Of a DNA stretch of 6,114 nucleotides, positions 750 through 5,903 are shown in pieces. Where the stretch lies: the NCBI GenBank assembly GCA_016840425.1, contig JAEOSI010000144.1:1-6114 (forward strand), read 5' to 3'. The DNA is from Candidatus Wukongarchaeum yapensis (GTDB lineage Archaea; Asgardarchaeota; Wukongarchaeia; Wukongarchaeales; Wukongarchaeaceae). The notes under the pieces were generated by a model that was not told the origin of the DNA, did no database searches, and saw only the letters and a list, made by a program, of their open reading frames with translations. The translations under genes were made by a program, and so were the position numbers. Each line of letters begins with the position of its first letter. Positions within the stretch are counted from its first letter, which is position 1.

Positions 750-802
750 AGCCAAAATAATTACATGGTTGTATTACTAGGAAAAAAGGAAGGTATAATT
801 GG

Positions 803-823
803 TTTTAAAAACCTATCTTTTTC
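803..823 (-). promoter_or_regulatory. Putative BRE/TATA promoter of lysW
   Basis: Minus strand reads GAAAAAGATAGGTTTTTAAAACC: a purine-rich element followed by TTTTAAAA (803-810), about 70 nt upstream of the lysW start. The BRE-TATA spacing is not ideal. Confidence 0.4.
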
Positions 824-847
824 ATCTTTCTAACCGATAGATCAATA

Positions 848-907
848 GTTAAACTTTTGGATAATACAAAAACTTAACGATATAGCTGGATAATACAAAA
901 ACTTAAC
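848..907. repeat. Perfect 21-bp direct repeat (2 copies, 29-bp period) plus an inverted half-site; operator-like
   Basis: TGGATAATACAAAAACTTAAC at 858-878 and 887-907, separated by GATATAGC. GTTAAACTTTTG (848-859) is a 10/12 inverted match to CAAAAACTTAAC (867-878). Confidence 0.85.
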
Positions 908-928
908 AATTTTTTTGGAAAAAACCCT

Positions 929-945
929 AAAAAACTCTTTAAATG
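929..945 (+). promoter_or_regulatory. Putative BRE/TATA promoter of the gelsolin-like gene
   Basis: AAAAAAC-TC-TTTAAATG, with the TATA-like box at 938-945, about 55 nt upstream of ATG 999. SD-like GAGGTAGTGATC at 985-996. Confidence 0.55.
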
Positions 946-998
946 ATTTTAACGTACTATAATATGATAAGCTATTCCATAAGCGAGGTAGTGATCAA

Positions 999-1262
999 AT
1001 GAAAAAGTTACGTGTTGCAGAAGATGGTGACACAGAAGAATTAAGTTCTATGTCATTTGGCTCGGATGAGGTTTTTTTGATCGTTGATGAAGAAGGGAAG
1101 AATGTCTACATCTGGATAGGATGCAATGCAAACGTTAGAAAAAGGTTTGCCGCGGCGAGGGCAGCAGGAGAGATAAAGCGACAAGACTTAACATATAGTA
1201 ACATTACTATTGACGAGGAGCATGAACCTGCTGGCTGGCGTTCTAAAATTTTGACAGTCTAA
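999..1262 (+). CDS. Single-domain gelsolin/villin-repeat protein (Asgard-type eukaryotic signature protein, putative actin regulator), 87 aa
   Basis: FGSDEVFLIVDEEGKNVYIWIGCNANVRKRFAAARAAGEIKRQ...ITIDEEHEPAGW follows the gelsolin-repeat pattern LxSxDVFILD...xYxWxGxxA, then a long helix, then xxExxEPxxF(W). It has a good RBS and its own promoter and terminator candidates. Assignment is by motif recognition, not by database search. Confidence 0.85.
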   Translation: MKKLRVAEDGDTEELSSMSFGSDEVFLIVDEEGKNVYIWIGCNANVRKRFAAARAAGEIKRQDLTYSNITIDEEHEPAGWRSKILTV

Positions 1263-1340
1263 TGGGTTAGTGTTCTTCTTAAATAATGAAATCTGTTTTA
1301 AAAAAGAGTAAAAGGAGTTATTTTCTACCCTAATTTACCC

Positions 1341-1350
1341 TTTTTATTTT
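1341..1350 (+). terminator. Putative oligo-T terminator after the gelsolin-like gene
   Basis: TTTTTATTTT about 80 nt downstream of the stop, typical of archaeal intrinsic terminators. Confidence 0.4.
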
Positions 1351-1459
1351 GTTCAAAAGTCTCTCTCCTCATCCCGGCAATTAAAAGATTTTTAATAATT
1401 TTATAAAATAGGAGGGATTTCAAATCTTACCTTAACCTTAAATTAGTTTTTAGTAGAAG

Positions 1460-1473
1460 CGAAAATTTTTAAG
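1460..1473 (+). promoter_or_regulatory. Putative BRE/TATA promoter of the TrmB-family gene
   Basis: CGAAAA directly followed by TTTTTAAG, about 55 nt upstream of the TTG start. SD-like AAGGAAG at 1512-1518. Confidence 0.65.
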
Positions 1474-1526
1474 AAAGAGTTAGGCAATTTTGTTTTGAAA
1501 AAGGTTTTCGAAAGGAAGAGTTCTTT

Positions 1527-2381: not shown

Positions 2382-2399
2382 TTTTTAGGTGGGCTTTTT
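2382..2399 (+). terminator. Putative oligo-T terminator(s) of the TrmB-family gene
   Basis: Two T5 tracts (2382-2386 and 2395-2399) immediately after the TGA, in the convergent junction. Confidence 0.35.
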
Positions 2400-4509
2400 A
2401 TAAGGTGAGACTTATTCTTGATTCTTGTTTTTCGTTTGGATTAAGGTTGAAGGGGAAAGTGTGGACTAATAGTAAGCCTTGATATGTGTCTTCTCTTCCA
2501 AAATCTGTGATGTTTGTTGTTAATATTTTGTCTATCAGTAAGCAGGATTGGGGGGTTGCTGTGATTTTTATGTTTAAGTTATTGTATGGGTCGGATATTG
2601 AGAGTTTTTTGTATTTCTGCTCTATTGATTCTTCTCTTTCTTTTAGGGGTATTTCAGAGTTATTTTCAAGGTTTGTTATTTTTGTTTGTTCTAGTTCGCT
2701 TATTAGTACTAGAGGTGTTTCGATTATTAGTTGTCCTTTAAGAGTTTCTGGACCTTTATTTTCTATAGTAAAGGTTGCAGTAAGTGTTTCATTTTGACGA
2801 TTGGTTCCGGCTATTTGGAATGACTTCAAAAAGGTTATGTTTGTTCCATTTTGACCTACTTTTAGGTATTCTTCGCGTTTTAATACGCATTTTGTGTCTT
2901 TTAGTTCTTCTATTCGGAAATCTCCCCAAGATAAGCTTCCTAATTCCTGATATTCCCTTTGCATAACACTGGTTTTTGTACTGTTTTCTGGCAGAAGGTA
3001 TATTCGAAATGCTTGGAGGGAATGTCTATCAAAGATCAAACCTGGAACGTTTTCATGGTAGGGTTCTTTTACACGTGTTTTTACATTAAGAAGGTTGAAA
3101 AGGGCTTTTTTACTGTCTAACTCGAAAACACTGCCTCCCTTATGAGGGGAGATGTAAACGTTTAAATTATGTCCTTCTATCAAAATCTCAGGGATAAAGT
3201 CACAATTGAAGTCTAATTCAAGCATTCTTGGCAGTTTAAACACGCTTAAGTTTTGCAGTAATTTTTCTGCTTCTCTCTCTGCGAAAATTAAATGCTTGTA
3301 AACACTGTTGCGAAGAGATCTGAGGTACACTCCTCCAAAAAGCCCATGCCAATAAACATCATTACACTGCGCTTTAAACAGTTCTCTTTTAAGGGTTCCT
3401 ATTAAACTTTCATCTGCTCCCCTTTTTTCTGCTTCAAGGATCTTTTTACGTACATAAAGCATTTTATTATGCATATTAGAGGACTCAGAGTATTTTGTGA
3501 GAAAGTTTCTCCAAAAACCACCCTTTGAAAACCAAAAAATTAAGCTTTTAAAATAAATTTCTTGATGCTCGGCTATTTCCATCATTTTTTTGTAACCGAT
3601 CTGGGCACCAGTTGGAAGGGACCAAACAGACAGCTTATCATAAGAAACCGTGGGAAGATAGATAAGACTCGACGGGTTAAAAACTGCAACATATTCTGAG
3701 AGAGTTGTAGGGATAATCCAAGGAGTTTCCTCAATCATTTTTAGAAAAGCAGACATCCAAGGCCGACCATCATAACCGCTTACATAACAGATATCGTGAG
3801 TTGTTCTGTCACCAGCAGGCCATTCTCCCATTTTTTCAGAATCACTACTGAAAACCACTATGCGATTTTTTTCAAAATTCTTAACCCTTGAAAGGAAATC
3901 TTTCGTTTCTTCTGGGAGTTTCCAAGGGGTAAGGTAGCGTATGGTTTCATTTATGGGGAATATTTTAACAGGGTAGCCTTGATCTTCGGTAACGAAAGGG
4001 TAAAAGGTTTCTTCTTCCTTAAAACCAAGATATTTTATGTGATTATCATCGATCAAAACATACTCTATTCCTGCCTTATGAAGGCTTTTTGGAAGTTGGG
4101 GCTCCCAAACTCTTTCTGCCAACCATAACCCTTTTGGATCGTAATTAAAAATTTCTTTTATACGTGTTTTGTGAAGGCTTATTTGATCTACTCGGTCTTC
4201 TTCAGGAATCACCGCAAGTATAGGCTCATAATAACCCCCCGAAAGAATCTCTGCTTGACCTCTTTTAACCATTGAACGAACCATATCGATATGTTCAGGA
4301 TGATTATATTCAAGCCACTCTAAAAGAAAGCCTGAATAATGGAGACAAACTTTCACTTTTGAATGCTCGTAAAGTTCCTTAATCAGCGGGTTATAAGACG
4401 ATTGAAAAACTTTTTCACAAACATGATCAAACTGACCCACAGGTTGGTGAGCATGAAATATCAAAGGAAAATAAACTATGGCTTCAGAAACTTCCTCATT
4501 TAAAGGCAA
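2398..4509 (-). CDS. Glycoside hydrolase family 57, 4-alpha-glucanotransferase / alpha-amylase type (Thermococcus litoralis TLGT / Dictyoglomus AmyA-like), with C-terminal beta-sandwich domain; about 703 aa
   Basis: GH57 conserved regions HAHQP, HYSG.LLEWL, GGYYEPIL, GLWLAERVWEP (nucleophile Glu, codon 4114-4116), SSDSEKMGEWP (acid/base Asp, codon 3841-3843; 91 residues after the Glu, as for E123/D214 of TLGT), GGFWRNFL.KY.ES and AQCNDVYWHGLFGG.YL. Start moved from 4569 to TTG at 4509 because GGAGG (4517-4521) lies 7 nt upstream. No signal peptide, so probably cytoplasmic. Confidence 0.93.
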   Translation of the reverse strand: MPLNEEVSEAIVYFPLIFHAHQPVGQFDHVCEKVFQSSYNPLIKELYEHSKVKVCLHYSGFLLEWLEYNHPEHIDMVRSMVKRGQAEILSGGYYEPILAVIPEEDRVDQISLHKTRIKEIFNYDPKGLWLAERVWEPQLPKSLHKAGIEYVLIDDNHIKYLGFKEEETFYPFVTEDQGYPVKIFPINETIRYLTPWKLPEETKDFLSRVKNFEKNRIVVFSSDSEKMGEWPAGDRTTHDICYVSGYDGRPWMSAFLKMIEETPWIIPTTLSEYVAVFNPSSLIYLPTVSYDKLSVWSLPTGAQIGYKKMMEIAEHQEIYFKSLIFWFSKGGFWRNFLTKYSESSNMHNKMLYVRKKILEAEKRGADESLIGTLKRELFKAQCNDVYWHGLFGGVYLRSLRNSVYKHLIFAEREAEKLLQNLSVFKLPRMLELDFNCDFIPEILIEGHNLNVYISPHKGGSVFELDSKKALFNLLNVKTRVKEPYHENVPGLIFDRHSLQAFRIYLLPENSTKTSVMQREYQELGSLSWGDFRIEELKDTKCVLKREEYLKVGQNGTNITFLKSFQIAGTNRQNETLTATFTIENKGPETLKGQLIIETPLVLISELEQTKITNLENNSEIPLKEREESIEQKYKKLSISDPYNNLNIKITATPQSCLLIDKILTTNITDFGREDTYQGLLLVHTFPFNLNPNEKQESRISLTL

Positions 4510-4672
4510 ACTTTTTCCTCCATTCTTCTTAACCAAATCGGATCGAAAAACAAACCTTAAATTTAACAATGATTACTTCTATGGCTAAAATTTACTTTTA
4601 ACATCTACTGCCAATTATAAGAATGATGCAACTCTTAAAAAATAATTTAATGGCTTTTAAGCGTTTTTAATC

Positions 4673-4757: not shown

Positions 4758-5903
4758 TTATTTTGAAAGTTCTGCGAATTTTCTCAACAGTTCTTCCTGC
4801 TCTTTTGTTAGCTTTTCGGGGACTTTGATGTTTACGACTACGTGCATATCGCCCCTTTTTCCTCCTCCAAGCGGGTTTAGGCCTTTTTTCTTGAGCCTAA
4901 AAATGGTGCCTGGTTGTGTACCTTTAGGAATTTTCAGCTTGGCTACACCATCGAGGGTGGGTACTTCTATCTCATCACCCAAGGCGGCTTGGGTAAAATC
5001 TAGCTCTTTTTCTAAAATTATGTGGCTATTGTATCGTTTAAAGAGTTTGTGAGGGCGTACCTGTATATTTACGTAAAGGTCACCGGGCTCAGCTCCGGCT
5101 TCTCCTGCTTCTCCTCCTCTTCTCACCTTTAGACTATGCCCAGTTTCTACCCCAGGCGGGATCTTGATCTTGATTTTTCTTGGTTTTGGGACAACTCCTT
5201 CGCCTTTACATACGGAACATTTCTTTTTGATTTGTTGCCCTGTTCCTCCGCATTGATTACATGTTGAAACAGTTGCAACATACCCAAAAGGAGTTCTACG
5301 TTCTTGTCTTATTTGTCCTGTACCGTGGCAAGTGGGACATTGAACGATATCGTCTTTGCTTTTTGCTCCCGTTCCGTCACATTCTTCGCATTTTACTCTT
5401 GTGTAATATTCTATCTCTTTCTCAAGTCCGGTAAGGACATCTTCCAATTCTATTTCTAGGTTGTAACCTAAATCGGCACCTCTTCTCGGAGCGGAACGCC
5501 AAGAAGGTTCTTCACCCCATCCACGAGACCTTCTTCCAAAATTAAAAAGACGTTCAAATATCGTGCCTGTTTCAAAACCACCAAAGCCAAGAAGGTCGGA
5601 GAAGAGGTCTCTTATATCATCGAAATGGGTAAAGTTTCGGAAGAAGTCAAAACCTCCAGGCCCAAAGTCTGAAGCTACCCCTGCATGACCGAATGTGTCA
5701 TATCGCTGGCGTTTTTCTGGATCGCTTAACACTTCATAAGCTTCAGAGACCTCGATAAACTTTGCTTCAGCCTCTTTTGGATTGTCCTTATTTCTATCTG
5801 GATGATGTTTTTTTGCTAATCTACGATAAGCCCTCTTTATCTCTTCGAGGCTGGCATCTCTACTTACCCCTAAGACCTCATAATAATCTCTTTTCGCTGG
5901 CAT
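4758..5903 (-). CDS. dnaJ: Class A (type I) DnaJ / Hsp40 co-chaperone, 381 aa
   Basis: J domain (RDYYEVLGV...HHPDRN...[16 protein letters not shown]), G/F-rich linker, four CxxCxGxG zinc repeats ([32 protein letters not shown]) and C-terminal domains ([34 protein letters not shown]). SD-like GAGGT at 5914-5918. Confidence 0.98.

Follow-up and report, generated by a model that had tools for sequence, protein, structure and literature searches.

A divergent ProGel-type single-domain gelsolin gene and the actin toolkit of its host, Candidatus Wukongarchaeum yapensis

Introduction

Gelsolin-domain proteins belong to the eukaryote-signature proteins through which the Asgard archaea are linked to the beginnings of the cytoskeleton of eukaryotes. 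Three architectures of the Asgard gelsolins were described by Akıl et al. 2020, namely ProGel, which contains the domain only, 1DGelX, which contains the domain followed by an X region, and 2DGel, which contains two domains (PMC7444086). The ProGels are known from the Thor and Loki lineages, and two were found in MK-D1 and four in GC14_75 (PMC9433394). A crystal structure of ProGel with actin is available, and the Thor ProGel was found to sit on rabbit actin at the cleft of subdomains 1 and 3 in a loose, cofilin-like orientation (PMC7444086). The same protein was reported to contain no Ca2+ sites, barely changed the kinetics of pyrene-actin and was found to bundle and anneal filaments at 96-256 µM (PMC7444086). 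The 1DGelX proteins were found to sever filaments independently of Ca2+, an activity that was ascribed to their extension (PMC7444086). A DWG motif was named for the gelsolin domains in the same work (PMC7444086).

The DNA analysed here (the window) is a stretch of 6,114 nucleotides from Candidatus Wukongarchaeum yapensis, which forms contig C148 of a genome of 2.16 Mb in 277 contigs with a completeness of 92%. It was found to contain a short gelsolin gene among metabolic and regulatory genes, and the gene, its protein and the actin-related genes of the host are described below.

Gene model and flanking regions

The gelsolin open reading frame was found at 999..1262 of the forward strand and contained 87 codons followed by a TAA stop codon, exactly as in the original prediction. 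The start was placed at ATG 999, the earliest start codon past the in-frame stop, within an open frame of 99 aa at 963-1259. The coding sequence, with the stop codon included, was annotated as an 87-aa single-domain gelsolin of the ProGel type from the open reading frame, the Pfam Gelsolin match, the AF2 model, the Foldseek comparison and the dN/dS value, and it is almost certainly a real gene. A Shine-Dalgarno-like GAGGT was found at 985..989 of the same strand, 9 nt upstream of the ATG, a candidate for the ribosome-binding site of its own that had been proposed for the gene. The stretch GCGAGGTAGTGATCA, which includes the GAGGT, was found to be identical in the alignment with the congeneric genome G001.

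The divergent intergenic region between lysW on the reverse strand and the gelsolin gene occupies 756..998 and contains candidate archaeal promoter(s). Two TATA-like AT-rich stretches were recognised in it by eye as candidates only, TTTAAAT at about 940 and TATAATAT at about 958. The same region was found to contain a 29-nt tandem duplication (TGGATAATACAAAAACTTAAC...) at 858-915, which is present as a single copy in G001; it may represent a doubled promoter or operator element, or a simple slippage event. The gelsolin gene is followed by a non-coding spacer of 264 nt (1263..1526) that contains no open reading frame of at least 40 aa on the forward strand, and the oligo-T runs 3′ of the stop codon were noted by eye as candidate terminators only. 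A promoter and terminator scan, whose models cover bacterial sigma-70 promoters and hairpins only, returned no relevant signal on either side of the gene. The gelsolin gene points away from lysW, and 264 nt free of open reading frames lie between it and trmB, so that it is probably monocistronic.

The flanking genes were found to be LysX (2-391) and LysW (555-755) on the reverse strand, a TrmB-family regulator (1527-2372) on the forward strand, and a GH57 amylase/4-alpha-glucanotransferase (2398-4569) and DnaJ (4758-5903), both on the reverse strand. These are common archaeal genes, in agreement with the ordinary neighbourhood described in the original prediction. The GH57 open reading frame contained three Pfam domains and lies tail-to-tail with the TrmB-family sugar regulator, with which it forms a plausible regulator-target pair; its true start may be downstream of the TTG listed for it.

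Family assignment

The Pfam Gelsolin profile PF00626 was found to match the 87-aa protein with 22.2 bits (cut-off 21, E 1.2e-4), and the match extends over residues 13-77 and profile positions 8-72 of 76, so that one repeat spans nearly the whole protein. The same frame scored 21.5 bits in the genome scan, which is again above the cut-off. The profile search that had been proposed as a check of the gelsolin assignment thus came out above the gathering score. The Cofilin_ADF profile PF00241 gave no match to the 87-aa protein even at E<=1. In a phmmer comparison with the PDB sequences, the matches included a Lokiarchaeota 2DGel (7.6e-7), adseverin and gelsolin (about 1e-6) and the Thor ProGel chain 7c2f_B (1.1e-4).

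An exhaustive HMMER (phmmer) search of 1.84 billion representatives was found to return 114 proteins at E<=1e-3, and a word-index homolog search returned P0001, an entry of a metagenome protein library, as the only relative. A family profile (A1), made from an alignment of 40 sequences, matched the Thor ProGel over its full length with an E-value of 4.4e-17, the 2DGels with 3e-16 to 2e-19 and villin with 7e-20. On the gelsolin protein itself, the family-profile domain covers residues 1-84 (aligned positions 13-96 of the 99-aa open frame). A gelsolin-like domain of the Sec23/24 type was also considered. It was discarded, since the gene encodes a stand-alone protein and the PDB matches of the A1 profile at E<=0.01 contained no Sec23/24 chain.

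Among the phmmer set and six frames of the host's own genome, the family-profile domain was found in 115 sequences. The short single-domain architecture was found in 26 of them and an N-terminal domain followed by an extension (1DGelX-like) in 36, whereas 33 contained two domains, 16 contained multiple domains and the remaining 4 contained one internal domain. The nearest relatives outside the genus were found to be 38-45% identical to the gelsolin protein in local alignments of 59-84 residues, with a maximum of 45%; most of them are N-terminal domains of single-domain proteins of 280-316 aa, and a few are short or two-domain proteins. The match in G002, a genome of the same order, was just 30% identical. 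Judged from these identities, the protein is placed on a divergent, genus-restricted branch.

Six short library entries (P0012, P0022, P0028, P0034, P0047 and P0048) were found to be nearly identical to the N-termini of 1DGelX proteins of 250-350 aa, followed by the presence of unrelated sequence. These apparently single-domain entries are truncated or frameshifted gene calls, and the ProGel counts taken from such libraries are therefore inflated.

Predicted fold and conserved residues

The AF2 model, which was run on the A1 alignment, was obtained with a pLDDT of 86.9 and a pTM of 0.72. It contained the elements E2-6, E12-15, E25-30, E35-40, H46-62, E67-72 and H80-86 in the order b-b-b-b-H-b-H, that is, five strands, a long helix of 17 residues and a short C-terminal helix, and the domain is complete. 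The best PDB match in Foldseek was the Thor ProGel bound to rabbit actin (7c2f_B; TM 0.83/0.82, rmsd 1.8 Å over 84 columns), followed by domains of Asgard 2DGel, eukaryotic gelsolin, adseverin and villin; all 50 among the PDB matches listed were gelsolin-family chains. The predicted structure is hence the gelsolin sheet with its long helix, as the original prediction had anticipated, and the protein very probably has the gelsolin fold of the ProGel class.

The core strands (codons 25-41, 1071..1121 of the forward strand, VFLIVDEEGKNVYIWIG, from the A1 alignment) were found to contain the D-W-G signature, with D30, W39 and G41 lying within VDEEGKNVYIWIG. In A1, the W39 and G41 residues were conserved in 39 of the 40 sequences and D30 in 31 of the 40. 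The core is followed by the long helix (codons 46-62, 1134..1184 of the forward strand, VRKRFAAARAAGEIKRQ), which corresponds to H46-62 of the model and is the predicted actin-facing element. The helix was found to start with V-R-K-R-F, in which Arg47 is shared by 35 of the 40 family members, K/R49 by 39 and Phe50 by all 40, and a VRK(K/R)F helix start is common to most of the ProGel/1DGelX domains. The helix contained six basic residues and one acidic residue, whereas the whole protein is acidic, with a pI of about 5.0.

The comparison of the Ca2+ sites covered the type-II site, the type-I site being one that is shared with actin. At the type-II site, K48 of the gelsolin protein was found to align with the Glu ligand, represented in gelsolin G2 by the E of 'NRYERL' and in the 2DGels by that of 'DEKF/REKF'. 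The Thor ProGel contains Lys in this column as well, and Glu was found in 0 of the 40 members of A1. With Lys48 in the place of the type-II Glu ligand, the protein likely acts without Ca2+ control.

Ortholog, selection and occurrence

The ortholog in the congeneric genome G001 was found to be 87 aa long too and 87% identical, and the order LysX-LysW-Gel-TrmB-GH57 is common to G001 and the window. The stop codon is placed at the same codon and the C-terminus is the same in both, with TAA in the window and TGA in G001. The two genes differ by 17.5 synonymous and 12.5 non-synonymous differences, and the resulting dN/dS of 0.15 indicates that the gelsolin frame is under purifying selection. The library entry P0001 was found to be a third variant, with 86% identity.

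The locus was found in the metagenomes of sediment, mangrove, marsh, seawater and soil (12 studies). One metatranscriptomic library contained contigs on 1061-1430 and none on LysX, LysW or TrmB. These contigs come without strand or transcript ends, carry-over of DNA into the library is possible, and they give a weak hint that the gelsolin gene is expressed.

Evolutionary placement

A maximum-likelihood domain tree of 99 domains and 95 columns was found to be poorly resolved. The canonical D1 and D2 domains of the 2DGels were placed apart from a large ProGel/1DGelX clade, with an SH-aLRT support of 92% on both sides, which is below the 95% threshold for a starred branch. The domains of five two-domain proteins (P0003, P0004, P0008, P0009 and P0050) were found inside the ProGel/1DGelX clade, and within it the window protein pairs with P0001 on long branches. 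The single-domain proteins and those with an X region are mixed throughout the clade; the tree requires the 'single' label to change 19 times, and starred branches force at least 8 of these changes. Several of the short entries are plainly truncated or frameshifted 1DGelX genes (for example P0047/P0076, P0048/P0074 and P0022/P0030).

As the two architectures are intermixed in the tree, a loss of the X region is as possible as its primitive absence. The published analysis met the same limit on the ancestral or derived state of the single-domain proteins (PMC7444086). With a domain tree that is mixed and poorly resolved, the word 'ancestral', which the original prediction had applied to the gene, describes the architecture and stands for no demonstrated history.

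A remnant of an X domain was searched for by tblastn in the whole genome with 34 C-terminal extensions taken from gelsolins with a single N-terminal domain, a search of low power because the X regions are divergent, and none was found downstream of the gene or elsewhere except the intact 1DGelX-like gene of contig C110. One of the 34 queries (P0040, the part past the first domain) turned out to be a second gelsolin domain and matched the 2DGel genes of contig C23.

Actin toolkit of the host genome

The host genome was found to encode an actin that scored 444.6 bits against Pfam Actin; its score was 656 bits against the actin of the Hodarchaeales isolate HC1 and about 550-560 bits against those of eukaryotes. 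The genome also encodes profilin. The host, an Asgard archaeon, thus has the actin cytoskeleton that the original prediction had expected from the gelsolin gene, as the presence of both actin and profilin bears out. The cleft motifs of the host actin (YASGRT and SVWIGGSILSSL) are intact by comparison with eukaryotic actin. The main actin gene is split by a contig end between C185:3719-4842 (+) and C43:2-172 (+); the last 10 or so actin codons lie at the start of C43, and the two pieces overlap by 47 residues and can be joined.

Two tandem 2DGel genes (L001-L004), whose open frames are 204 and 216 aa long, were found at C23:7330-8587 (-), and their domains were placed within the canonical D1 and D2 clades. 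The 1DGelX-like gene is present on C110, and contigs C214 and C125 contain more gelsolin-domain open reading frames. Gelsolin-domain matches were found in all 40 related genomes searched (39 listed as 'same phylum' and one of the same genus), and short gelsolin matches, with open frames of at most 117 aa, were found in about 18 of the 41 Asgard genomes.

Two true ADF/cofilin genes were found at C199:8613-8975 (+) and C91:1511-1864 (+) (L035 and L036), which matched PF00241 with 93 and 76.8 bits, respectively. A true ADF/cofilin gene was found in just 5 of the 41 sampled Asgard genomes, which belong to the genus of the window, to G002 of the same order and to family f14, and no mention of true Asgard cofilins was found in the literature examined.

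Several actin-family open reading frames besides the main actin were found in the host genome. The frames at C97:541-1704 (-) (L008/L011) and C20:3187-4386 (-) (L009/L012) contained the Pfam Actin positions 69-408 followed by positions 5-70, and this order within one frame points to circularly permuted actins.

Proposed function and alternative explanations

The gelsolin protein would be one member of a set of actin regulators in the host that comprises profilin, two ADF/cofilins, two 2DGels, the 1DGelX-like protein and other gelsolin-domain proteins around the actin itself. By analogy with the assayed Thor ProGel, it would bind actin monomers weakly and, at high concentration, would decorate the sides of the filaments and promote their bundling and annealing with no severing, and the Lys48 in the place of the type-II Glu ligand would free this action from Ca2+ control. 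From the same analogy we infer that the protein binds actin at all, as well as where and how strongly it does so and what this does to the filaments. On these grounds, the reading of the protein as a ProGel-type actin regulator appears quite likely as a whole, and the protein likely binds the host actin; the chances are about even that it resembles the Thor ProGel as a weak side binder or bundler that is independent of Ca2+. The Thor protein was active on rabbit actin only at 96-256 µM, and the physiological role of the ProGel class is therefore uncertain.

The readings that compete with this one differ in what they deny. A chance open reading frame or a false-positive gelsolin match would be in keeping with a single-sequence Pfam score just 1.2 bits over the cut-off, and it has practically no probability given the profile E-values of 1e-17 to 1e-20, the 114 relatives, the confident fold and the conserved ortholog. 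The gene could also be the remnant of a truncated 1DGelX, a decaying fragment that has lost its X region and has no function of its own; the mixing of single-domain and X-bearing architectures in the domain tree and the many short database entries that are plainly truncated 1DGelX genes (for example P0047/P0076 and P0048/P0074) are in line with it. The gene of the window, however, has kept its length of 87 aa, its C-terminus and the position of its stop codon in G001, has a dN/dS of 0.15 as expected under purifying selection, and encodes a complete domain including the C-terminal helix, with no X-like sequence downstream, all of which makes a decaying fragment very improbable. An X region that was lost in the past, with the gene then kept as a working ProGel, would fit the reading as an actin regulator of the ProGel type.

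The remaining explanation accepts the gelsolin fold and assigns it a partner other than the main actin, either an actin paralog (for example an ARP or one of the permuted actins) or a protein outside the actin family, the ProGel having been repurposed beside the true cofilins. It draws on the several actin-family open reading frames of the genome, two of them apparently circularly permuted, on the two bona fide ADF/cofilins, of a kind found in only 5 of the 41 sampled Asgard genomes, and on the divergent, genus-restricted branch on which the protein lies. Its helix-start motif and core signature are nevertheless of the general type of the ProGel/1DGelX clade, no feature of the protein indicates a different partner, and the cleft motifs of the host actin are intact, so that another partner is rather unlikely. 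The regulator acting on the main actin of the host is the reading that we prefer.

The host contains two true ADF/cofilins, which may already cover the part of a cofilin there. The ProGel could then be a separately maintained regulator with a job of its own, such as filament-side bundling or the binding of permuted actins, and would not be 'the Asgard cofilin', an idea that we put forward as a long shot. A stable coexistence of ProGel and cofilin would also be relevant to the proposed descent of cofilin from ProGel, and their joint occurrence in this genome bears on the published view of ProGel as a counterpart or precursor of cofilin in the Asgard archaea. The gene alone leaves the current picture unchanged. 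What makes it valuable is the set of genes around it in the genome, where the actin toolkit is unusually full and the joint occurrence of a ProGel and a true cofilin could serve to test whether their roles are distinct.

Comparison with known systems

The closest described protein in structure is the Thor ProGel (7c2f_B). It shares with the window protein a single domain of the gelsolin/cofilin core without an extension (87 aa in the window protein, 92 in the Thor protein), a hairpin that is longer by two residues before the W-x-G strand, the presence of Lys for the type-II Ca2+ Glu, and an Asgard host that contains actin. The identity of the two proteins was just about 21% in the structural alignment. 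The helix of the Thor ProGel starts with ELFKKL, whereas that of the window protein starts with VRKRF, which contains the family-invariant Phe50, and is richer in Ala and in basic residues. The Thor ProGel is an atypical member of the clade on account of its ELFKKL helix start, and its biochemistry may transfer to the window protein in part only.

The Asgard 1DGelX proteins, in which the X region is disordered or a coiled coil, contain a gelsolin domain of the same subfamily and the same clade as the window protein, but the latter has no X domain and its stop codon lies directly past the C-terminal helix. The Asgard 2DGels and the eukaryotic gelsolin, villin and adseverin share the fold and the Pfam family and gave significant sequence matches to the window protein. 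They are built of two to six domains and a WH2-like linker, and have a conserved Glu in their type-I and type-II Ca2+ sites, whereas the window protein contains one domain with K48 for the Glu and no linker. The ADF/cofilins (PF00241) have a related core fold; the window protein contains D-W-G and not the WP of cofilin, and the extra helices are missing from it.

The protein is a stand-alone, minimal gelsolin domain that lacks both an X domain and a second repeat, and to this extent the original prediction stands. Its further description as a bare ancestral-type module apart from ProGel, 1DGelX and 2DGel is not supported in that form, the architecture being exactly that of ProGel (PMC7444086). 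A single domain without an X region is the published ProGel class, to which the gene of the window adds one divergent single-domain example, a new member of a class that is already characterised.
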